A DNA stretch of 64,000 bases from assembly GCF_988243305.1 (NCBI RefSeq), contig NZ_OZ547136.1. One strand, written 5' to 3'. The notes beneath the pieces were generated by a model. It ran no database searches. It was not told the origin of the DNA and saw only the letters and a program-made list of their open reading frames with translations. Positions 7,474-50,503 of this stretch are shown here, in pieces (within the stretch, counting starts at the first letter, position 1; each line of letters begins with the position of its first letter). Both the position numbers and the translations under genes were made by a program.

Positions 7474-8544
7474 TTATTTAATCCGGGCCATCGCGCTTCT
7501 CAGTGCCAAATCTGCCTCTTCCGTTATCTCCAGACTTTTCTGCAACACCGTTTCTGACCGGGACAGTGCCTGACGTGCTGCCAGCGGTTTCCGGATATGC
7601 TCCATCGTCAGCATCGTGTCCTCGTAGCCCTGCTGACGCCAGGCGTCGGTATGTGCCGACGTGAAACTGAGCAGACCGCCACTGTTGCCACCATCACCTG
7701 CATATTTCAGCCTTTTCCGGGGACGGATCTCAAGGATTGTGGTGTCCGGAAAAGCCTGGCGATCCCATAAAGAACCGTCACTCAGATGCGACACAATCAC
7801 CATATTGCATCCGGCATCGACCAGAGGCGTTACAGGGGTATTTCCCTGCATATTTCGCCATCCTCCCATACCACCATCACCGAACATTGTCCCCTGAACC
7901 TCACGGGGACGGAACAACAGGGGCAGTGCGGCTGACGCAAGCAGAGCCTCTTTCTGCTGTCCGCGGGGCAGACTCTGGATATGCTGAAAAACGGCGTTTT
8001 TCGTGGTTCCGGAACCCAGTTCAGCACGAATGCAGTCAATAATATCCTGCATGCCCCCTTCTGTGGGGTACAGCGACACATACAGCGGTAGCCCGTCTGC
8101 CAGAGCATCTGTATCAAGATAATGATCCATCAGCGCTGTCAGGGGCCCATCTGACAACAACGGCTGAGTCATCGGATTGTCGAAGCCGTTGATTATCGAT
8201 ATATGGCGAAGAAGTGTCGTAAGCAGTGCTCCTGCACGTCCGGGGATCTGGCAGAGGTTCATTGCCTGGAACAATTTTTTCAGCAATGAAAAGTAAACCG
8301 ATCGGTTTACCGACAGCACCTGATTATTCCCAAGATGATCCCAGAGCGCCTCCAGGCGTACGGCAGCTTCTGACAGATCGGGAGAGGCCGCGATAATGGC
8401 ACCATTGAATGCGCCAATGCTGGCCCCTGAAACCATGCTGATCTGTGTACCACACTCTGCCAGTGCCTTAACCACTCCCGCCTGATAAGCGCCCACCGCC
8501 CCACCGCCGGACAGCACCAGCCCTGTTTTTATTTCTATACTCAT
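7474..8544 (-). CDS. Patatin-like phospholipase (356 aa)
   Basis: GGGAVGAYQAG glycine-rich oxyanion motif, GASIGA (GxSxG) nucleophile, DGG catalytic Asp; start overlaps upstream stop (ATGA). Confidence 0.85.
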   Translation of the reverse strand: MSIEIKTGLVLSGGGAVGAYQAGVVKALAECGTQISMVSGASIGAFNGAIIAASPDLSEAAVRLEALWDHLGNNQVLSVNRSVYFSLLKKLFQAMNLCQIPGRAGALLTTLLRHISIINGFDNPMTQPLLSDGPLTALMDHYLDTDALADGLPLYVSLYPTEGGMQDIIDCIRAELGSGTTKNAVFQHIQSLPRGQQKEALLASAALPLLFRPREVQGTMFGDGGMGGWRNMQGNTPVTPLVDAGCNMVIVSHLSDGSLWDRQAFPDTTILEIRPRKRLKYAGDGGNSGGLLSFTSAHTDAWRQQGYEDTMLTMEHIRKPLAARQALSRSETVLQKSLEITEEADLALRSAMARIK

Positions 8545-9446
8545 GCAGCCCCCTTCTGAAATATTTCATCGACCATACTTTCAGAGAGGCGTTCTGCAGA
8601 GCAGAGACGGGGCATGCGAACCGGTAAGTGTTCTGCAGCCTGCGTGGTTGACCAGATCACCGGATGCTGCTCTTCACTGCACCAGTCCCCCAGCCAGTTA
8701 ATCGCGTCATGCCACTCGTTATCTGCCTGCTCCCGGCCCTGACCACCAAGCCAGTCCAGAGTGTTCAGACGCACGGTTGCACTACCGCCACTCTCCTGTG
8801 CCATCTGCGTTAATGCTTTATGTCTGAGAATATCCAGTAGCTGGTTAACCTGGCCTGTTTCGCCCTGACGTATCACATCACCAAACGCGCCCCAGCGAAG
8901 CTCTTCAAGTGCCACATAACAACGTCCGGCAGGGGAAAATGACGCATATCGCCCGGCGCTCCACCAGGAGAATATCTGCTCAAGATGTAACTGCGCCCGC
9001 TGAACCAGGTCAACACGGTGGAGTTTTTCTTCAAGATGATTCAGTTTCTGGTGAACCTGATCGGCCAGGGTGAGTAACTGCTCCCGCGTATCTGCGGAAT
9101 AATGCGCCAGCCTGGCAGTATCACTGACCAGTGAACTGACCCTGTCGTTTACCCGGGTAATCGCGTAGTTTGTGGTGGCAAGTGACGTTGTCAGCTCCGT
9201 CAGCCAGCGCAGGGACGCCTCAACGCCCTGTGCAAGCGAAGCATTGATGGCATTCTGCCGTGCAGCACCTTCGCCGCTCAGCCCCTCTTTTAACCGCCGG
9301 AAGAACGTGCGCTCTCCGGCCGTACGGATATGCTCCTGTGCAACATCAATACCGTTTGCGAAATCAACCACAAATTTTTCAGGAAGACAGGTGAGTACCT
9401 GACATACCCGGTTATCAGCAATTTGTTGAATAAATGGTGAAGTCAC
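8541..9446 (-). CDS. Hypothetical protein, partner of the dynamin-like GTPase (possibly YjcZ-like), 301 aa
   Basis: ORF overlapping both neighbours by 4 bp; no TM segments; YjcZ-like assignment is only by synteny with crfC(yjdA)-yjcZ. Confidence 0.6.
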   Translation of the reverse strand: MTSPFIQQIADNRVCQVLTCLPEKFVVDFANGIDVAQEHIRTAGERTFFRRLKEGLSGEGAARQNAINASLAQGVEASLRWLTELTTSLATTNYAITRVNDRVSSLVSDTARLAHYSADTREQLLTLADQVHQKLNHLEEKLHRVDLVQRAQLHLEQIFSWWSAGRYASFSPAGRCYVALEELRWGAFGDVIRQGETGQVNQLLDILRHKALTQMAQESGGSATVRLNTLDWLGGQGREQADNEWHDAINWLGDWCSEEQHPVIWSTTQAAEHLPVRMPRLCSAERLSESMVDEIFQKGAA

Positions 9447-11827
9447 AGCATTGTCTCCAGTTCTTCCCTTAACGCCTTACTGTCAGTAATGAGCTCAGGA
9501 ACCCTTTCATTTAACGCCTGAAGACGCCCGGTCAGCCGTTCCTGCGCCTGCTGATCGCGTTTATGATCTTCAGAGCTCTGAATCAGCGTGTTACGCAGCT
9601 GTTCAACTTTCTCCCTGAATGTACAGAAAAAGGCATCGATTTCCTGGCGGACGGGCTGGTTAATATCCTGCTCAATGGATGCCTGCAGCTCCCCGAAATA
9701 TGCCCGGGTCAGTGACATCACTTCCTCTCTGACCTTGTTGATATTGATCACGCTGCGGCTCACATCCACACTGTACTCTTTCCAGCCCCAGTCACTGGTG
9801 TTTGCCCATCGACAAAGCGTACCCCAGACACCATCCTGTCGACAGCGACGGGTTACTGTCTCCGTTCTTTCCTCCATAAGCGCGCTCAGATTTGTTTTTA
9901 CTGCGAGCCGGGTCTGTAACTGGCTGACTGCCGGAAAACTGATTTTTACAGTGAAACCTTCATCCTCCAGACGGGCATTGATGCGTCCGGCAATATTTTC
10001 TGTGGCGTACAGGGCCGTACCACGAAAACCTGTTTCAATACCCCTGACGATTTTTTCCAGTTCAGGACGGAACTGTGCTTCAGCCTCACGGTGCAGGCTG
10101 GTCACGGTCGATTCGATTTGCGTCATCAGTTCAAGGGCTTCCCTGCGATCACTGAATTTTATTTCGGGGCTGTCCGGATCAAAGTCCCGCATCCTGTCAT
10201 GCTGATTTCCGGTTCCGAAAATATCGTGAAAGAAAGCGAATGCGTTTCTCTCCCGGGGCTGCGCTGAATTTTCTTCCTCCAGCATTTGCTGTTCTTTGCG
10301 TTTACCGCTTCTGAAATAGTCATTCAGCTCCTCTTCCAGTGAGGTGCAGACCCCCGTCAGTAATTCCCGGGTTCTGGCATCGATCTCCTCCATGGCCATT
10401 CTGACATCAGCGGTCACCTGCTCCTGACAGTCCGCGATTTCCCGGATATCCGCAAGCAGGCTGGTGATATGCGACTGCAGTGACTGAATGCTTTGCTGTA
10501 GCCCCTGATGGCGTAATGACAGATATTCGCTGACATTTTCCGCATTCTGCATCAGTTTTGCGGCGGCAGAATCAACCGCCAGTGCCGCCGCTCTGGAATG
10601 GGAGCTCTGTATGACTTCCGTTATCAGTTGATCGATAAGTGAGCCTTCCCACAGGTCTGTCGCCCCTTCGGTTGCCATTTCACTGTCTTTACAGACGTAT
10701 TCTTTTTTCATGCGACCGAAGGCTTCCCTGACAAAATCATCGACCCAGGCTTCATCAACAGGAAGGGTTCTGTTTTTCCGTAACTCATGAAGCGCACGGT
10801 TAGCCAGGTACGCCTGACGTGATGAGCCTGGATAAACGCGGGAGGCGGGCAGCACATCGCTGTTCAGCATTGCCGGAACTTTCTGGCGTACGGCATCTGC
10901 CCCATCGCCATTGCGGTCTTTCTCATCAAATTTATTGACCAGCACAAACAGGCGGCCAGCTGATACGTCAGCAATGGCATTAAGCTCTTTACGGACGTCT
11001 TCATCCGCTTTTGAGTTCATCTGGGTGTAATCCATCACCGCCAGCACCGCAGAGGCTTTCTGCAGTTGATCCCGCATCATCACTTCCATCTGCGGTTGTC
11101 CGGCCTCATTAGGGCCGGGGGTATCCAGCAGTGTGAGTGTTCCCTGGCATGGATCCATCCCCACCAGATGGCTGAATTCCACGTCGATCACCGGCAGTTT
11201 CTGCACTTCTGCGTATTCATCAAAAGGAAACTCACTCCCCATTGCCGCAGCAAGGCGAACCAGATCGTTTAACGATGCCAGTCCGGTAAAAATTTCCTCC
11301 TCCCCGTGGTATTCATTTTTGAGCCAGCCATCATTTGCCAGAATATCCAGCAGTTCGCAGGTATCCCCGGTTTGCTGCAGGGTCTGTGCGACTTGCTGTC
11401 CTGCCGGGGTGTCGAGTTTTTGTTTCAGTGTGCTTAATAAATTGCGGACGGGCTGAATATGTTCCAGATGGAGGACCGGCTCAGTTTTTCCGGGAACGTG
11501 GCGGATGAGCGTCGGTACAGAGGTCATGGGGCGGTTACGGTTAGGCAGAATTTCCTGCCCCACAATGGCGTTGATGGTGGTTGATTTACCTGCTTTCATC
11601 GTGCCGACAACAGCCAGCACCATCTCCCTGCGGGCGGTTTTGATTTGTTCGCCCTCCAGCTCCTCAATTCTTTTCAGTGCTTTCTGTTTATCAAAAAGCA
11701 GTCTGTTTTCGTTCTTACTGTCAGATAACACATCCGGCTCATCAACCATTTGCCGGAGCAGATTAATGTTCAGTTGCAAAAGTCGGTCGGCTTCATCACA
11801 AAGCAGGGCGATGTTCTTTTCGTGCAT
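9443..11827 (-). CDS. Dynamin-family GTPase, CrfC/YjdA-like bacterial dynamin-like protein (794 aa)
   Basis: G1 GTMKAGKST, G3 DTPG, G4 NKFD; N-terminal GTPase region resembles E. coli CrfC as recalled; long coiled-coil-rich C-terminus. Confidence 0.85.
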   Translation of the reverse strand: MHEKNIALLCDEADRLLQLNINLLRQMVDEPDVLSDSKNENRLLFDKQKALKRIEELEGEQIKTARREMVLAVVGTMKAGKSTTINAIVGQEILPNRNRPMTSVPTLIRHVPGKTEPVLHLEHIQPVRNLLSTLKQKLDTPAGQQVAQTLQQTGDTCELLDILANDGWLKNEYHGEEEIFTGLASLNDLVRLAAAMGSEFPFDEYAEVQKLPVIDVEFSHLVGMDPCQGTLTLLDTPGPNEAGQPQMEVMMRDQLQKASAVLAVMDYTQMNSKADEDVRKELNAIADVSAGRLFVLVNKFDEKDRNGDGADAVRQKVPAMLNSDVLPASRVYPGSSRQAYLANRALHELRKNRTLPVDEAWVDDFVREAFGRMKKEYVCKDSEMATEGATDLWEGSLIDQLITEVIQSSHSRAAALAVDSAAAKLMQNAENVSEYLSLRHQGLQQSIQSLQSHITSLLADIREIADCQEQVTADVRMAMEEIDARTRELLTGVCTSLEEELNDYFRSGKRKEQQMLEEENSAQPRERNAFAFFHDIFGTGNQHDRMRDFDPDSPEIKFSDRREALELMTQIESTVTSLHREAEAQFRPELEKIVRGIETGFRGTALYATENIAGRINARLEDEGFTVKISFPAVSQLQTRLAVKTNLSALMEERTETVTRRCRQDGVWGTLCRWANTSDWGWKEYSVDVSRSVININKVREEVMSLTRAYFGELQASIEQDINQPVRQEIDAFFCTFREKVEQLRNTLIQSSEDHKRDQQAQERLTGRLQALNERVPELITDSKALREELETML

Positions 11828-11884
11828 TATTTAACCTTCCTGAGACGCATTTTCATGACAACCACGGAGGAGGTCATTTACTAC

Positions 11885-11910
11885 AAACGATCGTTTATAA
11901 CGATCGATAT
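11885..11910. promoter_or_regulatory. Palindromic operator-like motifs upstream of the dynamin operon (AAACGATCGTTT, CGATCGAT)
   Basis: Perfect 12-bp palindrome plus adjacent palindrome in the 199-bp gap between the GTPase stop and the dynamin start. Confidence 0.3.
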
Positions 11911-12026
11911 ACTCTATTAACTTGAGAAACACAACGCAAGGGGACAACCCGGGTATGGCTGCGTTTGCATAGTGTTTTCATGGAGTTAAAAATCTGTAAC
12001 AATAGCCTGGTACATCACCACCGGGT

Positions 12027-12899
12027 TCAGAAGAAAATCCAGTTCCATACCGCGCGGGCAACAGAGACCACCGAGTCACGGACGGCTCGCAGAACCGTAC
12101 GAGCCACAGAGGCAACACAGACGCTCTCCGCTGTGTCAAATATCCGGTCCACCGCACCGGTAAACTGTTCACGGGCCTGAGAGCGGACAGACTCCGTGCG
12201 CAGTTCGTCCTGCAGGCGGGTCATCAGGGGGCTGGCGGCATGGTCGGGAAGCGCTGTCATGAGCGCACTGACCAGCGTATCCAGTTCCCAGCCGGTGCAG
12301 GCCGATACGGCCACAACCGGATGTACGGGCCGGAACAGCCGGAATACCGCCTCCGTTTTCTCACGAATGTTCTGTGCCTGTGCGGGAGAAGGCTGAATGC
12401 CGGCCATATCCCATTCATGGCAGGGCTCCGTTTTGTCGGCCTGCGTCACCACAAACAGCACCTGCTGATGTCCCCGGTGCAGGATGTGTCGCCAGAAATA
12501 CTCATCCACAGACAGGGCACGGTCATCGGCTTTAATCAGCCACAGTACCAGGTCAAGTTCAGGCAGAATGTCACGGTACAGGGCTTCATACTCTGCATCC
12601 CTGTCCCGGCTCTCGCCCACCCCGGGCAGGTCAGTGATAATCATGCTGTGACCGTGGCCACTCAGACGGAAGCGCCGCACTTCCCGGGTGCCGGCGTGAA
12701 CATCACTGACCGGGGTGACCTCCCCCTGAAACAGCGCATTACAGAGTGAGGATTTACCGGCCCCGCTTTTACCCATAATGCCAATCACGGGTTCGTGACT
12801 GGTGAGTTTGCGCAGATGTTCCTGGATGTGACGGGAAAGTGAGTAAGGCAGGGAGGAGAGCGGTTTTTCAATTGCCTCAATGGCATCAGACGGATTCAT
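12027..12899 (-). CDS. YfjP/YeeP/YkfA-family GTPase
   Basis: P-loop GIMGKSGAGKSS and DLPG motifs; conserved CP4-type gene; start taken at MNPSDAIE. Confidence 0.8.
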   Translation of the reverse strand: MNPSDAIEAIEKPLSSLPYSLSRHIQEHLRKLTSHEPVIGIMGKSGAGKSSLCNALFQGEVTPVSDVHAGTREVRRFRLSGHGHSMIITDLPGVGESRDRDAEYEALYRDILPELDLVLWLIKADDRALSVDEYFWRHILHRGHQQVLFVVTQADKTEPCHEWDMAGIQPSPAQAQNIREKTEAVFRLFRPVHPVVAVSACTGWELDTLVSALMTALPDHAASPLMTRLQDELRTESVRSQAREQFTGAVDRIFDTAESVCVASVARTVLRAVRDSVVSVARAVWNWIFF

Positions 12900-12983
12900 A
12901 CATGTATTCCCGGTGAAAAAAGACAAAACCCCCGCACACCGGAAAGGTGGCGGGGGACTCACAGAGATAATATATGTCTGAAA

Positions 12984-15798: not shown

Positions 15799-16005
15799 TT
15801 ACGGACGGGACTGTGCAATACGCGCCTGCAGCCAGGCTTCCACTTCACTTTTCAGCCATCGGGAACTGCGGCCCAGCTTGATGGGGGCCGGAAAGGCCCC
15901 ATCCCTGATGAGTTTGTAAAACCACTTATCGGTCAGGCCAGTCAGTTGAGTGATAAACGCCATGTCGACCATCTGGTCATCCATCAGTGAAACTGGGGTG
16001 GTCAT
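15799..16005 (-). CDS. alpA: AlpA-family transcriptional regulator / excisionase-like protein
   Basis: MTTPVSLMDDQMVDMAFITQLTGLTDKWFYKLIRDGAFPAPIKLGRSSRW… matches AlpA. Confidence 0.8.
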   Translation of the reverse strand: MTTPVSLMDDQMVDMAFITQLTGLTDKWFYKLIRDGAFPAPIKLGRSSRWLKSEVEAWLQARIAQSRP

Positions 16006-16911
16006 GAGAATGTTCCTCCGGATGTTGTTAATCTCAACCGGCGTTGGTGATGAAAACAACGCACCACCTTCACCGGCATAACAACCGGGGAGAAACGTAA
16101 AAAATAATCGGGAATGTGACCGCCAGGAGATAAACGGGGGGATTGCGGTGGCTGAGCCGTACCGGTATGTCGGGTGGTTGTTGCGAAACGATGCTTCCGC
16201 ACGCGATAAAGGAGGGAGGACTTTCGTGAGACAAGGGGAAAACTAGCGTTCTGATAATTGCAGAGTTGTTTTTGAAGGCGGTTGTGGTATATCAGCCTGT
16301 GACCTGTGGGCAGGCGACAGTTATCACTGGTGGGATAATACTGTCTGATTGGTATTATAAATATATAAGAGAGATCAAACACATGAGATCAAACACATGA
16401 GTTCATATATGTGAAATAAATCTGTGAGTGTGATCAGCAGACCAGTCTACCCAGTAGCAACAGATTGCGTTGTACTCACAGGGTTATCCCTGATAACTGG
16501 CGTATAACCTGCGTACATAAAACGTACCTGCAATGCACCTGAACAGAGTGCATTAAGCATCCGCCTGAGCGGTAAACGTATCCGATCTGGTGAGTGACAG
16601 TCTGAGAGCATTCTCAGTAATCGCCCCCTTGTATCCTGGAAATTGGTTAAGATAACAGCGATTAGATTTGGCAAGGTGTATGCAGCCAGCAGCTTAACAT
16701 CTCAGCTAACTGGCTGGTTACCTTCAGGTTGTCGCAATGGCATCGGACATCCGGTGTCGGATAACTAAACGTAGCGTTAAGGCGATATTGCTGAGAGACC
16801 GGTTAAGTGGTTGCACGGGAGTAATGAGTTTGGGGAGGGCACCAGAATGCCAGGTTGGTGCGGTATGCTGACAGCATCCTGTTAACCGCAGCATAAAGTA
16901 ATGAGAGGCTA

Positions 16912-17124
16912 ATGGAAGTTAAAACCAAAGAAGACTGGCTGTATCAGCTCCGTCGTTGTTCATCCCGGGAGACACTGGAAAAAGTGATTTCCCACACACG
17001 TTATAAACTTACCCCTGCGGAGCTGGAAGCCTTCAACTCTGCGGTCGATCACCGGCTGGCAGAACTGACAATGAACAAGCTTTACGATCGCGTGCCGGCT
17101 TCAGTCTGGAAATATGTCATCTGA
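16912..17124 (+). CDS. Hha/YmoA-family nucleoid-associated modulator
   Basis: 70 aa; …[14 protein letters not shown]…VPASVWKYV closely parallels Hha/Cnu. Confidence 0.8.
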
Positions 17125-17720
17125 GCGTTCGGTAATCACAACGGCATCGCGCCAGGTGTTATCCGCTTTGTGATTCTTATTGGCTCTTCTCAGGTTATTA
17201 AAAGCTGAATATGTTCCTGTTGTCGGGAACCAGGATAATGTCGGGAACGTTAAGCTGTATAACGACAACAAAGAATTCGAAATCAAAAGGGAATGGTGTA
17301 CGGAGGTGTGGACGGTAATGGGCCGATTTTCGGGCATTACCGACCTCTGCTGAGGTTTTCTCGTATTTCTGGGGATCCGGTGAGTTACTGTCACTGTCTG
17401 GCACAGCAAGCGCAGAGGCGGCGGGGCGCTTTGCTCCGCTGATTCCGGATAATTCCTCCCCTGTAACCTACCGCAACAGTACAAATACACTGACGCCTGA
17501 AACGACAGCCAGAATCAGCACAAGCCACAATCCCTGCACACCGTTTTGCGTATCACCATAACGCCTCCTCACAGCCTTACCCGTAACCGGTTTTTTACAT
17601 TAAAAAAACAACGCTGGGAATTCAATCGTCAGTCCGGAGACGACAGTCGGGTTATCACAGAGTGCCTGAGACAGTGTCCTGCCGGAGGTCACCTCAGGGA
17701 CTCTGCACATTTTTTACAGC

Positions 17721-18326
17721 GTGGCTATTCCGTATGAACCATACGGAGATTTAACCATGACCTACAAATACAACCCCTTCTGGCAGCAACGTATTCGTGA
17801 GACGGTGCGGCACGCACTGAATGTTCATCCCCGCCTGACGGCATTGCGGGTTGACCTGCGTCTCCCGGATGTACCGGCAGCAACGGACGCAGCTGTGATA
17901 TCCCGCTTCATCAATGCCCTGAAAGCCCGAATCGACGCTTACCAGAAACGTAAGCATCGGGAAGGTAAACGCGTGCATCCCACAACCCTGCATTACGTCT
18001 GGGCCCGGGAGTTTGGGGAGTGCAAAGGTAAAAAACACTATCACCTGCTGCTGCTGGTCAACCGGGATACCTGGTGTCGTGCCGGTGATTACCGCGCTCC
18101 GGGGTCACTGGCCGGGATGATTAAACAGGCCTGGTGCAGTGCCCTGGGAGTGGATGCCGGACGTTATGACACGCTGGCACATTTTCCGGTCAGGCCGGCG
18201 GTGTGGCTGGAACGCGATGATGACACCGGCTTTCAGCAGGTGCTGGAGCGTGCTGACTATCTGGCGAAGGAGAGTACCAAAGCTTACGGCACCGGTGAGC
18301 GCAACTTTGGCTGCAGTCGTGGCTGA
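17721..18326 (+). CDS. YagK/YfjJ-family (inovirus Gp2-like) protein with HUH-like motif
   Basis: HYHLLLLVN His-hydrophobic-His motif; family assignment from memory; start may be the internal Met at 17757. Confidence 0.55.
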   Translation: MAIPYEPYGDLTMTYKYNPFWQQRIRETVRHALNVHPRLTALRVDLRLPDVPAATDAAVISRFINALKARIDAYQKRKHREGKRVHPTTLHYVWAREFGECKGKKHYHLLLLVNRDTWCRAGDYRAPGSLAGMIKQAWCSALGVDAGRYDTLAHFPVRPAVWLERDDDTGFQQVLERADYLAKESTKAYGTGERNFGCSRG

Positions 18327-18455
18327 GCCCGACAGACGACTTATCTGACTTCAGTGTGATGACGTGTTCACAGCGACCACACTGATTTTCCCTTCTGAGA
18401 CTGAACTGAAAACCGCCATTCACACCTGACCACGCTGCCCGTACCGGGACGGCTG

Positions 18456-19057
18456 TTGCCTGCGTGTCGTCTGGCGGTAAGGAACCACACTATGTACGCA
18501 AAATCTTTTCTCGCACTTGATGGCAACGGACGTCTGACCGGTGCCCGTACCGCACAGACCGCACCTTATGCTTACTACACCTGCCACCTTTGCGGCAGTG
18601 CACTCAGATACCACCCGCAGCACGACACGGAACGTCCCTGGTTTGAACACACTGACGACGGGCTGACGGAGCACGCGCAGCAATGTCCTTATGTCAGGCC
18701 GGAACGCAGAGAAATACGGTTGATTAAACGTCTGCAGCAATTCGTCCCGGATGCCTTACCCGTGGTACGTAAAGCCAGCTGGTACTGCAGGCAATGTCAC
18801 CACGATTATTATGGGGAGCAGTACTGCACACACTGCCAGACCGGGCGCTTCAGTGAGGACGGGGAGCAGAATGAACGGTATAAAAACGGGGCTGGGGATC
18901 ACGCCGGGTGAGCACATTATCAGTGCCGACTCTGCGCTCAGCAGAAATATCCGGCATTGTTTCTGCCTTTCCTGTCATGGCCGGTTGATTCTGCAGACAG
19001 ATGCTCAGGGGGCGTGGTTTGAGCACGATTTACATGCCCTGAGTGAGCAACAGAAGG
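18456..19057 (+). pseudogene. Disrupted gene for a Cys-rich protein with repeated C..C…WFEH modules; frameshifted and cut by IS66
   Basis: Two overlapping ORFs in different frames each carry CxxC…WFEH(D/T) modules; 3' end runs into the IS66 terminus. Confidence 0.4.
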
Positions 19058-19094: not shown

Positions 19095-20633
19095 TTATTC
19101 AGTCGGCAGTGCTACGCGCCAGGGGAGCAGTTCGCCGACCCGGTTTATCGGCCAGTCGGCTATGACGTCAAGGACATAGCGGAGGTAGCTTTCTGGCTCC
19201 ACTCCGTTCAGTTTGCACGTCCCGATCAGGCTGTACAGCAGCGCTCCCCGCTCTCCTCCATGATCCGAACCGAAGAACAGGTAGTTTTTGCGGCCCAGAC
19301 TGACCATCCGCAACGCATTTTCAGCGATGTTATTGTCCGCCTCAGCCCAGCCATCATCTGCATAGTACGTCAGCGCCGGCCACTGGTTCAGGGCGTATGC
19401 GAACGCTTTCGCCAGTTCTGAGTGTCGCGACAGGGTTTTCATCTTTTCACGCAGCCAGCTTTCCAGGGATTTCAGCAGCGGTTTCGTTTTCAACTGACGT
19501 TCGGCAAGGCGCTGTTCCGCCGTCATTCCCCTTATCTCTGCCTCGATGGCGTACAGTTCGCCGATCCGTTTCAGCGCTTCCTCCGTCAGGGCTGACGGGG
19601 TGCGAACGTGCACATCGTGGATTTTACGGCGGGCGTGAGCCCAACAGGCGGCTTCCGTTATCCGGCCATCCCGGTACAGCTCGTTGAACCCGGCGTATGC
19701 ATCCGCCTGCAGTACACCACTGAACCCCGCAAGATGGGTCTGCGGATGGATGCCTTTTCTGTCCGGGCTGTAAGCGAACCACACCGCCGGCGCCAGCGTT
19801 GACCCGGCGTTACGGTCGTCACGAACATACGCCCACAACCGCTCGGTCTTCGTTTTCTTATTGCCTGGCAACAGCACCGGGACAGGCGTGTCATCAACAT
19901 GGAGCTTACCGTCAGTCAGCACATAGCCATGAAGCGCCTCTTCCAGCGGAGACAGCTGCCGGCAGCATGCATCCACCCAGCCCGACAGCAGTGAACGGCT
20001 CAGCTCCACACCTTGCCGGCCGTATATTTCTGACTGGCGATACAGCGGGGTGTGCTCTGCATACTTCGAGGTCAGCACGCGGGCCAGCAGCCCCGGTCCG
20101 GCGATACCCCGCTCGATGGGCCGCGAAGGTGCAGGTGCCTGCACGATGGCATCGCACTGAGTACAGGCATGTTTTTCCCGTACCGTCCGGATAACCCGGA
20201 AGGCGCTACGCATCAACTCCAGCTGTTCGGCGATATCCTCGCCCAGATAGCTCAGTGAACCGCCGCAGTTCGGGCAGCACGGCGCCGCAGGCAACAGTCG
20301 CTTTTCGTCACGGGGTAGTGATTCAGGGAACGGCTTACGGGTGCGGGTCTGACGCAACGGACGCTGTACTGCCGGGTCATACACCCTACCAGTCAGCGTA
20401 TCGCTCTCTTTCTGAAGCCGGTTCAGATCGGCTTCCATTTGTGCGATACGGCGGGAGACTTTTTCGGAACGACTGCCGAAGTTCATCCGGCGGAGTTTAT
20501 CCAGCTGCGCCTGCAGATGGTCTATTTCGCGCTCCCGGTTGCTCAGCTTTTCCTGCAGGGCGTGGATCAGCGCTTCCTGTTCGGCCAGGCGCTGTTTCAG
20601 CAGGAAAATGTCGTCAGAAGAGATGTCGTTCAT
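19095..20633 (-). CDS. IS66-family transposase TnpC (complete, about 512 aa)
   Basis: Full-length TnpC with CPNCGG zinc motif; start taken at MNDISSDD. Confidence 0.9.
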
Positions 20634-21730
20634 ACATCGTGTATTTTTCGCCGGGCATGGACCCAGCACGCAACTTCTGTCTGTGCACCACCTTCACGTT
20701 TGGCACTGAACAGCCGATCGTAACCGCTGAATGCATCCGCCTGCAGGATACCCCGGAAGGGACGAAGGTGTTGTACCGGATGTTTTCCCTGCCTGTCTGG
20801 TGAGTAGGCGAACCAGACCGCCGGTGGCTCTGATGAGCCCGCATTCCGGTCATCCCGGACATACGTCCAGATGCGTCCTGTTTTTGCCTTTTTTCTGCCC
20901 GGTGTCAGCACTTTTACCGGTGTGTCGTCAGTGTGAACCTTGCGGGTGTTCATCACGTAACGGTACAGGGCATCATTCAGCGGAGTCATTAACTGGCAGC
21001 ACGCGTCAACCCAGTTGGAGATTAATGCACGGCTCAGTTCGGCACCCTGTCGGGCAAAGATTTCACTCTGACGATACAGTGGCAGGTGTTCGCAGTATTT
21101 TCCCGTTAACACGCGGGCAAGTAATCCGGAGCCCGCGATGCCGCGCGCTATCGGGCGGGACGGCGCTGGCGCTTCAACTATACAGTCACATTTTGTACAG
21201 GCTTTTTTTACCCGAACAGTGCGGATCACTTTCAGGGCGCTACTCACCAGTTCCAGCTGCTCAGCACTGACTTCACCCAGATAATCCAGCTCACTGCCAC
21301 ACTCCGGGCAACAACTTTCTTCAGGCTCCAGGCGGTGTATTTCACGGGGAAGATGTGCTGGTAACGGACGACGATGACGTGACTGTCGCAACTGGCGGGG
21401 AACCTGCGGGTCATCCTCACGCCCACTGTAACGATCGCTTTCCTGTTCGCGTTGTTTCAGTTGGGCCTCAGCCTGTTCAACCTCACGCTGCAGTTTTTCA
21501 GAACGGGTACCGAACAGCATCCGGCGCAGTTTTTCTATCTGGGCCCTCAGATATTCTATTTCCCGCTCCTCCTCTTCGATCTTTTCTTCGGCACGTGCCA
21601 GTGCAGAGCGCAGGAAGGCCTCCGTCTCTTCAACCAGACTCAGTTGCAGATCTCTCTGACGGAGGGCTTCAGCCTGCTCAGAGAGCAGCCTTTCCAGCTC
21701 AGTGATACGAATGAGGTATTTCCGACTCAT
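20630..21730 (-). pseudogene. IS66-family transposase TnpC, C-terminally truncated (N-terminal 366 aa of a different copy)
   Basis: Ends at …[12 protein letters not shown], the point homologous to the middle of the complete TnpC; its stop overlaps the next start. Confidence 0.8.
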
Positions 21731-48745: not shown

Positions 48746-49263
48746 CAAAGCCATAGCTCAGGTGCGTGCGGTCCGCACGGCGCGGAGCCTGAGGGCTTCA
48801 CGGCGGAGGATATGCGGACCATCGGGCGCTACCTGCACTGCGAGGCGAATTGGAACATCGACTCGGACTTGAGCCTGTGAGGGGGGCCGTCCTCGGGAGA
48901 AGTTTTTCTGCGAAATAACTATGCGCCGACGGACGAACACTCGTTCGTGTGGCCTATGGCCCAGGGCAAAGGCTGGGGGGCCCCTATTAAGTTGTCAAGA
49001 ATGTTTATTACACCAGCGGGGTATAAAAAGTACCGTCACGCATCATGGCGAATAGAACGTCGCAGCGCCTTGTTCACAGTGTTTTCACTCGTGGTTATCT
49101 GTACCCGTGAATATCAGACCATTGTCACCAGCCCATGCCTGTAATTCTGTCAGAATGGCTACAGCCTGTTTGTTGGGTGGTACAAGATGCAGTGCCCTCT
49201 GGTTCCCTCTGATGAGAGTCCTGGCGGGGTGAACAAATAAAAAAGAAAACATAAATAAAACCA

Positions 49264-49292
49264 TCCGGCTTTTGGGGCCGGATGGTTATTCA
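49264..49292 (-). terminator. Rho-independent terminator downstream of the integrase gene
   Basis: AACCATCCGGC-N7-GCCGGATGGTT hairpin followed by a T-rich run on the minus strand. Confidence 0.6.
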
Positions 49293-49321
49293 TTATTTCT
49301 GTGTCACTGAATTTTCATTCA

Positions 49322-50503
49322 TCAGGTCTGCTCAGAAAGTGAATCAATGTAGTCAGCGTACCATTGCATCATTTCACGGCGACCATCGAGATACTGTGCG
49401 TGGTTATAGGTACCGCGCATGATGTTTTTATCAACATGGGCAAGCTGGAGTTCAATCCAGGCAGAGCTGAAATCATGGTCATGGAGAATGGTACTGAAAG
49501 TATGCCGAAAACCATGAGCTGTAGTGAATGTATGCCAGCCAACTTGTTGAAGAAACTCATTGATGCAACCACGGCTACGAGGTTGATTACCCCTGTATAC
49601 ACCAGGAATAACCAGATCTGAGTTACGGGGATTTGTGATTATTTTTATATCTTTCAATAACATTTGAGCCTGATGAGAAAGAGGAACAACATGCGGCCTC
49701 CGCATTTTCATTCTCTCTTTTGGGATTACCCAGAGGGCATTGGTAAAATCAATTTCATCCCAAGTAGCCAGGCGTAATTCTCCCGTTCGAACAGCAGTCA
49801 GAACCAGTATCCGCGTTACCAGAGACATAAAATTTCCTGAAACTTTCATTTGGTACATGAAAGCTCCTAACTGTTCTTCAGATAGCATCCGTCTCTGCTG
49901 TTTTTCAGGATGCAGAACAACACTGCTGAGAGTCGATGCTGGGTTAATAGTGGCGCGCCCCGTCGCAATGGCATAATCAAATATTTGAGAACAGAGCTGA
50001 CGAGTCTTACGTAACGCTTCAAGTTTGCCATTCCTTTCAATAACCCTCAGTGCATTCAATATTTCCAAGGGGCGAATATCAGCCACAGGACGCTTCCCTA
50101 GCGTGGGATTAATATGATTCTCGAATCTTGCACGCTGGTCCGCTAAATAACCCGCAGTCCAACGACAAGCCATATGTGTGAACAACTCTTCTGCAAGAGT
50201 ACAAAATGTGCATGCAATACTTTCTCTTAGTGCATGTTTACTCGCCTGTTTTTCATATGAAGGATCTTTTCCTTCAGCCAGGAGTTTACGTGCGTCATCC
50301 CGTTTCTGACGCGCCAGAGCCAGTGATATGCCTGGATAGACACCAATCACCAATTTCTTTTCTTTACCCGCAAATCGATACTTCAGATTCCAGTAACGAG
50401 CGCCAGATTTCTTGATAAGAAGGTAAAGTCCTTGACCATCAGAAAGTTTGTAATCCTTGTCAGCGGGTTTGGCCGACTCAATTTGTCGAACAGTAAGTGG
50501 CAT
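49322..50503 (-). CDS. int: Tyrosine integrase, P4-type
   Basis: 393 aa; N-terminal …KLSDGQGLYLLIKKSGARYWNLKYRFAGKEK… and C-terminal HGFRHTF…LAHVD…Y catalytic signature; 177 bp from the right junction. Confidence 0.9.
   Translation of the reverse strand: MPLTVRQIESAKPADKDYKLSDGQGLYLLIKKSGARYWNLKYRFAGKEKKLVIGVYPGISLALARQKRDDARKLLAEGKDPSYEKQASKHALRESIACTFCTLAEELFTHMACRWTAGYLADQRARFENHINPTLGKRPVADIRPLEILNALRVIERNGKLEALRKTRQLCSQIFDYAIATGRATINPASTLSSVVLHPEKQQRRMLSEEQLGAFMYQMKVSGNFMSLVTRILVLTAVRTGELRLATWDEIDFTNALWVIPKERMKMRRPHVVPLSHQAQMLLKDIKIITNPRNSDLVIPGVYRGNQPRSRGCINEFLQQVGWHTFTTAHGFRHTFSTILHDHDFSSAWIELQLAHVDKNIMRGTYNHAQYLDGRREMMQWYADYIDSLSEQT

Follow-up and report, generated by a model that had tools for sequence, protein, structure and literature searches.

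A YagK/YfjJ-family gene in an Escherichia coli island encodes a predicted single-tyrosine HUH nickase with a candidate role in island replication

What is the biological function of the YagK/YfjJ-family gene that is carried by a composite island on contig NZ_OZ547136.1 (NCBI RefSeq assembly GCF_988243305.1)? The gene lies in a stretch of 64,000 nucleotides of this contig, which was analyzed as a whole and is referred to here as the window. YfjJ and YagK, the relatives of the gene product in E. coli K-12, are encoded by y-genes that are still uncharacterized. Homologues of the window gene are carried by ~75% of complete E. coli genomes, frequently as multiple copies, and sit inside pathogenicity and fitness islands. 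We propose that the gene product is very probably a nickase of the replication initiator (Rep) class of HUH (histidine-hydrophobic-histidine) enzymes, consisting of a single domain and using one catalytic tyrosine. Its most likely role is that of the rolling-circle initiator for the excised island, a proposal to which we assign even chances. The gene and its in-frame upstream extension are located as follows.

17757..18326, plus strand: coding sequence of the YagK/YfjJ-family (PF11726) protein, a predicted Rep-class HUH endonuclease, 189 amino acids, stop codon included
17721..17756, plus strand: in-frame upstream extension with a GTG start, probably leader and not coding, as the homologues and the pipeline annotation start at the ATG

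Identity of the protein and its predicted active site

The plus-strand open reading frame (ORF) at 17721-18326 is real. It begins with GTG, spans 201 amino acids and contains the sequence KKHYHLLLLVN, whose first histidine codon is found at nucleotide 18036. The initial annotation took this whole frame as the gene; the ORF with its HYH motif stands, but the start most likely lies at the ATG at 17757, which yields a protein of 189 rather than 201 amino acids. The GTG at 17721 is almost certainly only the longest possible start, given that a GGAG Shine-Dalgarno (SD) sequence is located at 17745-17748, that the first methionine of all full-length homologues falls at the equivalent position and that the NCBI Prokaryotic Genome Annotation Pipeline (PGAP) annotates a matching coding sequence of 570 nt in near-identical E. 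coli loci. PGAP names this coding sequence 'inovirus Gp2 family protein'. Residues are numbered here in the 189-residue protein, and the addition of 12 converts them to the 201-residue frame.

To which family does the protein belong? It matches Pfam family PF11726 (YagK_YfjJ_C, formerly Inovirus_Gp2) with an E-value of 1.2e-47 and a score of 162.5 bits against a gathering cut-off of 25.8, and the match extends over profile positions 1-170 of 170. Together with full-length identities of 36% to K-12 YfjJ and 39% to YagK, this match bears out the initial description of a YagK/YfjJ-like protein. The two profile searches proposed at that stage diverged in their outcome: the Inovirus_Gp2 family was found, but Rep_trans (PF02486) gave no match at E≤1. 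The gpII-type Pfam models likewise gave none at this threshold. PF23343 (REP_ORF2-G2P) remains sub-threshold, with 25.0 bits against a cut-off of 27.8, and its match covers the HUH region (residues 71-121 of the 201-residue frame); the same cut-off is passed by K-12 YfjJ (29.9) and by one Psychrobacter homologue (30.1). PHROGs returns only a family of unknown function, and no relevant NCBIfam or PADLOC model matches the protein. Searches of the PDB by sequence yielded nothing useful, either with the single sequence or with a profile of 114 sequences. The label "inovirus Gp2" is historical. It survives as the former name of the Pfam family but not as a link to real inoviruses, because tblastn with the protein or a distant plasmid homologue as the query found no inovirus match among 50,697 phage records. 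The sole match in these records was the 4.4-kb unannotated record 'Escherichia phage ECO111 5-P'.

The gene is intact and occurs very commonly in E. coli islands. Its family and annotation are already in databases, and there is thus little new in the identity of the protein itself. A sequence cluster at 98% identity, comprising 2,204 sequences, is named "inovirus Gp2 family protein", and 4,042 of 5,426 complete E. coli genomes (~75%) contain matches to a 1.4-kb stretch that spans the gene together with its flanks, at a median of two and a maximum of nine places per genome. Full-length gene copies are present in thousands of genomes, and truncated variants are also numerous in databases. For the interval 17125-18500, no complete E. 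coli genome of the collection searched reaches 99% identity; the best matches show ~97% identity over 87% of the interval or 95.5% over the whole. The amino-acid differences among alleles cluster at residues ~131-155 and 172-178, which may represent specificity loops or a recombination mosaic.

Is the HYH sequence a functional signature? The six-frame translation of the window contains a histidine-hydrophobic-histidine triplet at 75 places and an HUH triplet with three hydrophobic residues after it at seven. The bare motif is therefore common, and it counts only through family conservation and fold context. An exhaustive search of 1.84 billion representatives retrieved 710 relatives, and residue conservation was assessed in an alignment of 114 full-length relatives of 33-49% identity. 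The only invariant positions in this alignment are E85, H94, H96, W126, Y168 and K171, and R31, D33 and K175 are near-invariant. These residues form motifs that are arranged in the order of the Rep class, with R31-V-D-L-R resembling motif I, H94-Y-H96 constituting the HUH motif (H-Y-H-u-u-L-L-N) and Y168-L-A-K171 forming the tyrosine motif (Y-L-A-K-x-x-T-K). K-12 YfjJ and YagK retain the same invariant residues, and so do plasmid homologues that are 21-25% identical. Moreover, the ratio of nonsynonymous to synonymous substitution rates (dN/dS) is 0.06-0.35 for the more diverged allele pairs (dS of ~0.1 or more), which indicates purifying selection; in near-identical pairs, which differ by a few substitutions only, the ratio is higher and noisy. 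The window copy is not truncated and has kept all of the invariant residues. The proposal that HYHLLLLVN is an HUH signature thus draws its weight from the invariance of H94 and H96 among the 114 homologues and not from the motif alone, which is not above chance. A reading of the motif as a chance occurrence was rejected on the basis of family invariance and fold, despite the frequency of the bare triplet.

The predicted structure agrees with the Rep-class arrangement of motifs. In the AlphaFold2 model, which has a predicted local distance difference test (pLDDT) value of 96.1 and a predicted template modeling (pTM) score of 0.91, the HUH motif is part of strand 93-102 and E85 of strand 79-86, and helix 156-170 carries Y168 at its end. 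The best matches of the model among solved structures are the nuclease domains of HUH Reps, namely SIRV1 ORF119, parvovirus NS1, Helitron, adeno-associated virus (AAV) Rep and RepB, and the fold matches include the NS1 structures of B19 (7szx) and human bocavirus (4kw3). In a Foldseek comparison with the BFVD library of viral proteins, most of the top matches are unnamed, and every named match is a replication protein, mostly a microvirus replication initiator or VP4, with one ORF2/G2P-domain protein among them. Profile alignment (hhalign) with gokushovirus VP4 gives a probability of 88% and an E-value of 3e-6, and superimposes E85 on the glutamate of G-E-Y-G and HYH on HYH. By eye, motif III of the protein, YLAKESTKA, resembles YVARYSLKK of VP4, but the second tyrosine of VP4 is not conserved here, and the protein is not a two-tyrosine enzyme of the phiX174/VP4 type. 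The HUH histidines and Y168 are thus invariant in a fold that is nearest to HUH Reps, which supports the HUH assignment of the initial annotation. That annotation was to be given up if an HUH-family match and a conserved catalytic tyrosine were both lacking, and neither is lacking here. In the active site suggested by these comparisons, H94 and H96 on one β-strand and E85 on the neighboring strand would bind Mg2+ or Mn2+, and Y168 would attack one DNA strand site-specifically, forming a covalent bond with the 5' phosphate.

Small plasmids and a candidate role in replication

What would a nickase of this type do in a cell? Small plasmids that carry family members without another recognizable Rep provide the strongest indication that the protein is a replication initiator. 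The Psychrobacter plasmid pA41H1 (L024, NZ_MN657093.1), a circular molecule of 2,626 bp, contains the PF11726 protein as its only ORF of at least 65 amino acids, even when it is scanned as a circle. No other recognizable Rep is encoded by E. coli pRHB38-C24_9 (3.7 kb), P. monsensis pPGSB8459 (3.8 kb) or Psychrobacter pA46P2 (4.1 kb), and the same holds for a group of Klebsiella plasmids (5.5-5.9 kb) that carry a PF11726 protein. In the small plasmids whose annotation was examined, a resolvase usually accompanies the PF11726 gene.

The typing of these plasmids was also inspected. For the plasmids with a typing line seen, MOB-suite assigned no replicon type and called them non-mobilizable. In the tiny plasmids L024, L025, L026, L028 and L003, the PF11726 protein is the only recognizable replication candidate. 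The tiny PF11726 plasmids may constitute an uncatalogued replicon family.

How would the protein act in the island? The island would be excised by AlpA and the integrase, after which the protein would nick the circular form at a cognate site. Rolling-circle synthesis by the host polymerase would be primed by the free 3'-OH, and unwinding would be provided by a host helicase (UvrD/Rep-like) or, in sister islands such as CP4-57, possibly by the adjacent DUF3987 helicase YfjI. As a consequence, the excised island would be copied and maintained and not lost. For one DUF3987 protein, which belongs to the replication module of a mobile element, experiments have established 5'-3' helicase activity (PMC11724360), and a prediction is found in PMC5862659.

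A broader version of this proposal can be put forward only tentatively, and we consider it rather doubtful. Islands of the CP4-57, CP4-6 and SRL types, which about three quarters of E. coli genomes contain, could be integrative rolling-circle replicons and not inert 'cryptic prophages'. Their AlpA-linked HUH protein of the YfjJ/YagK type would nick the circle that forms on excision and copy it, with the help of YfjI (DUF3987) in islands that encode this helicase. Members of this protein family would then initiate the replication of the untyped tiny plasmids of Psychrobacter, Pseudomonas, Klebsiella and E. coli.

The island module and its non-coding elements

In which genetic context does the gene reside? 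The window represents an E. coli-type composite island, and the core chromosome resumes at ~49.2 kb. The module around the gene consists, in order, of a hypothetical gene (205 amino acids), an AlpA gene on the minus strand, an Hha gene on the plus strand, a small ORF on the minus strand, the gene itself and two DUF7828 zinc-ribbon genes. The neighboring genes are as follows.

15799..16059, minus strand: AlpA-family (Phage_AlpA/HTH_17) excision regulator identified by Pfam, the most constant neighbor of the family
16912..17124, plus strand: Hha/YmoA-family nucleoid-associated modulator identified by Pfam (E=5e-28) and by the Hha model of NCBIfam, directly upstream of the gene within the module
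18492..18911, plus strand: first 'putative zinc ribbon protein' (DUF7828 and Zn_ribbon_11) identified by Pfam, the conserved downstream partner
18871..19056, plus strand: second zinc-ribbon (DUF7828) gene, cut by an IS66-family insertion
19095-20669, minus strand: IS66-family transposase ORF, full length, which truncates the second zinc-ribbon gene
20630-21730, minus strand: second IS66-family transposase ORF, whose C-terminus is lost, by correspondence with strain BR1220
49346-50500, minus strand: IntA-like tyrosine integrase, 34.5% identical to K-12 IntA, at the island-chromosome junction (~49230-50503) by the cycA/cpdB region

The two IS66 transposase ORFs lie back to back, apparently as a result of the insertion of one such element into the other, and TnpB and TnpA accessory genes follow. 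The integrase is the sole integrase homologue in the window and is ~31 kb away from the gene. ARAGORN detected no transfer RNA (tRNA) gene anywhere in the window, and the attachment site is thus not an obvious tRNA.

The module recurs in other loci. The order of Hha followed by the gene is also observed in other E. coli loci, and Hha and other neighbors are pseudogenes in several sister loci. The identical AlpA-Hha-YfjJ-like module is tabulated for the Shigella SRL island (PMC6980539). Related loci in IMG/VR were found with an alignment of 13 sequences. In eight of the 15 related loci scanned, the Gp2 homologue has an AlpA homologue at a distance of no more than ~1 kb; five of the 15 carry a cluster of RadC, antirestriction and DUF932 genes, and a DUF3987 gene is present in three (L007, L015 and L020). 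In K-12, CP4-57 has the order intA-yfjH-alpA-yfjI(DUF3987)-yfjJ, and yagK of CP4-6 adjoins the resolvase-like gene yagL.

The zinc-ribbon synteny downstream of the HUH gene is shared with Klebsiella (L006:10252-11075) and one IMG/VR locus, and the tandem zinc-ribbon proteins may be DNA-binding partners of the nickase. In addition, related islands often contain a second, divergent Gp2-type paralogue a few genes downstream (L006:11151-11714, L005:10994-11560 and L007:13103-13669), and in the window the position of this paralogue has been removed by the IS66 insertion. The paralogue at L006:11151-11714, on the Klebsiella plasmid p1-BD-14-NDM1, has lost both the HUH motif and the tyrosine and would thus be a catalytically dead partner; the window copy is unlike such a decayed site.

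Further upstream, by correspondence with BR1220, an operon on the minus strand (7474-11827) encodes a dynamin-family protein (794 amino acids), an RdcB-family protein and a patatin-like phospholipase. A GTPase-family gene at 12027-12962 adjoins this operon and shows weak PADLOC matches to LeoBC and LeoA. The genes at 7474-12962 may be defense or membrane-remodeling cargo.

Does the DNA around the gene contain a nick site? The following non-coding elements were identified.

17658..17705, plus strand: imperfect inverted repeat of 13 bp, CAGAGTGCCTGAG - 22 nt - CTCAGGGACTCTG, upstream of the gene
17713..17756, plus strand: conserved leader with TTTACA (17713-17718), 14 nt after the TACA core (17719-17732) and TATGAA (17733-17738)
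17729-17747, plus strand: perfect hairpin of 8 bp, TCCGTATG-AAC-CATACGGA, within the leader and overlapping the SD sequence, in E. coli alleles
17734-17754, plus strand: mini-ORF of six codons within the leader, whose frame is not conserved
18413-18471: near-invariant non-coding block that precedes the first zinc-ribbon gene (ATG at 18492)

The leader has a fixed architecture that consists of a T/A run, TAC(A), exactly 14 nt, (G)TTATGAA(A)C, AACC, the SD sequence and AACCATG. It is found with the same spacing in loci whose proteins share only 35-68% identity, and its occurrences include L029, L006, L019, L020, L013, L010 and L011, where it is located just 5' of the Gp2-family genes. A hairpin as good as that at 17729-17747 arose in only four of 500 shuffles. 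The leader could be a promoter, an element of translational control, a protein-binding site or a candidate nick region.

The inverted repeat at 17658-17705 is a candidate operator or origin hairpin. It is kept in most of the aligned E. coli alleles, with the exception of allele L030, which has lost the intervening 24 nt and does not retain the right arm, and no counterpart is evident in the Klebsiella locus. The DNA fold of the surrounding interval (17525-17760) has a z-score of -3.5. Generic scans for repeats, promoters and terminators near the gene were unremarkable.

When the flanks were compared with those of distant loci by blastn, no conserved non-coding block was detected upstream of the gene, and a single block emerged before the zinc-ribbon gene. 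This block, at 18413-18471, is almost invariant in E. coli alleles, is 78% identical to a copy on a Klebsiella plasmid and is more conserved than the neighboring coding sequence. As single-stranded DNA (ssDNA), it would adopt a branched hairpin (z=-2.2).

Alternative functions and relation to known systems

Several observations weigh against the protein as the initiator of island replication. A DUF3987 gene is missing from the window, and IS66 interrupts the module; the window copy may thus be inactive or may act solely in trans. The search for an origin or nick site identified none. Neither of the candidate hairpins at 17658-17705 and 17729-17747 matches a known nick sequence, no sigma-70 promoter emerged from a simple scan of the region, and non-coding conservation beyond close relatives is confined to the short leader. 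The plasmids do not speak with one voice. Five of the seven Psychrobacter plasmids examined (L004, L035, L036, L037 and L038; 4.6-5.7 kb) carry the PF11726 gene, which encodes a protein of ~250-290 amino acids, directly downstream of repM, the gene of a Rep_3 theta initiator, and Pseudomonas pMPC6-4K carries a PF11726 gene together with a separate annotated replication initiation protein. Given the theta-type Rep alongside, the PF11726 protein of such plasmids is probably not the vegetative initiator and probably serves as an accessory nickase, possibly for mobilization. Conserved non-coding blocks are present in the small plasmids, and the longest of pA41H1 (245 nt) exhibits no excess ssDNA structure on either strand (z of ~0), so that no sso-like single-strand origin was detected. 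The repeats of pA41H1 include no clear iterons or origin hairpin. Finally, a literature search retrieved no functional study or assay of PF11726, and yfjJ and yagK are still listed as uncharacterized (PMC11551758).

Could the protein function in transfer instead of replication? A relaxase-like protein would nick and join DNA at an oriT-like site of the excised island and pass a single strand to the type IV secretion system encoded by a conjugative plasmid or integrative and conjugative element (ICE) in the same cell, and the island would be an integrative mobilizable element with a non-canonical, Rep-derived relaxase. This alternative is the main rival, although we consider it unlikely, and gains from the backbone, which is rich in genes of conjugative ssDNA entry (ArdB/KlcA antirestriction, DUF932 and RadC/JAB), and from the occurrence of homologues on large conjugative plasmids. 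The position of the gene 3' of repM in the five Psychrobacter plasmids is the usual place of an accessory or MOB module and not of a second initiator, and the separate replication initiation gene of pMPC6-4K points in the same direction. However, the HUH motif precedes the tyrosine as in Reps, whereas canonical relaxases have the tyrosine N-terminal to the histidine motif, and the protein has its best counterparts in fold and profile among replication initiators and not among relaxases. A relaxase with the PF11726 protein as the only gene of its plasmid, as in pA41H1, is also difficult to accommodate. The Pfam scan matched no relaxase family, which speaks against a canonical relaxase and not against a relaxase-like mode of action, and the non-mobilizable calls of MOB-suite on the small plasmids show only an absence from the catalogued relaxases. 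A second alternative accepts an HUH enzyme that is intact in sequence and supposes that its cognate site or partners have been lost in an island riddled with insertion sequences, leaving it idle or merely DNA-binding. Such a silent remnant is improbable, albeit compatible with the IS66 insertion, which cuts the zinc-ribbon gene downstream and eliminates the place of the second Gp2-type paralogue, with the lack of DUF3987 in the window, with the distance of ~31 kb to the only integrase homologue, with the pseudogenes at Hha and other neighboring positions in several sister loci, with the lack of a predicted promoter and with the many truncated variants in databases. The full-length ORF with all of its invariant residues, the dN/dS values well below 1 in the more diverged alleles, the full-length copies in thousands of genomes and the conserved leader argue against such a remnant.

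Two further alternatives are an interference nuclease and a transposase. As an interference nuclease, in a defense or satellite-type function, the protein would nick the DNA of phages or plasmids that infect the cell or act as helpers and not that of the island. Defense cargo, AbpAB and RnlAB, is located beside yfjJ in CP4-57-type islands, and Pseudomonas islands that have a Gp2-like protein among their core genes bear defense systems and are moved by jumbo-phage transduction (bioRxiv 10.1101/2024.08.29.610337). We nevertheless regard this function as very improbable, since PADLOC matches neither the protein nor its zinc-ribbon neighbors, the gene belongs to the conserved AlpA backbone and not to the variable cargo, and the position as the sole gene of a plasmid misfits a defense role. 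A single-strand transposase (IS200/IS605 Y1, RAYT or IS91 type) acting on a small element of its own is scarcely credible. The protein shares with such enzymes a small single HUH domain and a single tyrosine, and one Pseudomonas homologue is annotated as 'transposase'. However, the Pfam scan detected no Y1_Tnp or IS91 match, and no flanking pair of subterminal hairpins was found. Furthermore, copies always reside in the same long syntenic module of Hha, the gene and the zinc ribbon and not between varied flanks, and the copy number tracks the number of islands, with a median of two per genome. The transposase explanation was rejected on the grounds of the constant context and the missing Pfam match.

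Why does the function of the protein matter? The present analysis found no new object and gives a testable hypothesis on a known, annotated family. If the protein nicks and replicates, or mobilizes, the excised island, this activity would explain how such islands survive after excision and how they spread. It would also define a new plasmid replicon type that is missed by current typing schemes and would add a compact, sequence-specific candidate for an HUH tag.

How does the protein compare with known systems? Its closest known counterparts are K-12 YfjJ (CP4-57) and YagK (CP4-6), which belong to the same Pfam family, share the motifs RVDL, W-x-x-E, HYH and Y-x-x-K and are likewise hosted in islands with an integrase and AlpA. 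The window protein nevertheless represents a distinct paralogue group, with 189 versus 208 amino acids and without the insertion after motif I, and its partners are the DUF7828 zinc-ribbon genes and not DUF3987 (YfjI) or the resolvase-like YagL. With the initiators of Microviridae (gokushovirus VP4 and phiX174 gpA) and with PF23343, the protein shares the Rep-class order of HUH motifs. In contrast to VP4 and gpA, which contain Y-x-x-x-Y and exceed 300 amino acids, it has one conserved tyrosine and ~190 amino acids and lacks a zinc-binding N-terminal part. Its gene is also located in a double-stranded DNA island and not in an ssDNA phage.

The one-tyrosine Reps of solved structure that were compared are SIRV1 ORF119 (2x3g), parvovirus NS1/AAV Rep (3wrn and 1m55) and RepB of pMV158 (3dkx). 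In AAV Rep and RepB, the active site combines one acidic residue, the HUH motif and a single tyrosine on a C-terminal helix, and the same pattern is predicted here. The protein differs from the solved one-tyrosine Reps in that the sequence identity is only 10-15%, with no sequence-level PDB match. Moreover, it has no fused helicase, unlike NS1 and Rep68, and no recognizable oligomerization domain, unlike RepB.

The gpII proteins of filamentous phages (Ff/CTX RstA type) and Rep_trans are rolling-circle nicking initiators, and the gpII-type proteins are HUH enzymes. Rep_trans constitutes a different, non-HUH family (PMC6668415). The pCRESS elements (Kazlauskas et al. 2019), which are plasmids with virus-like Reps, are integrated in bacterial chromosomes and encode HUH Reps with relatives on small plasmids (PMC6668415). 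The window protein resembles them as an HUH Rep of site-specifically integrated elements with relatives on small plasmids. It differs from the pCRESS Reps, which are fusions of HUH and superfamily 3 (SF3) helicase domains, in that its nuclease stands alone and the DUF3987 helicase, where present, is encoded by a separate gene.

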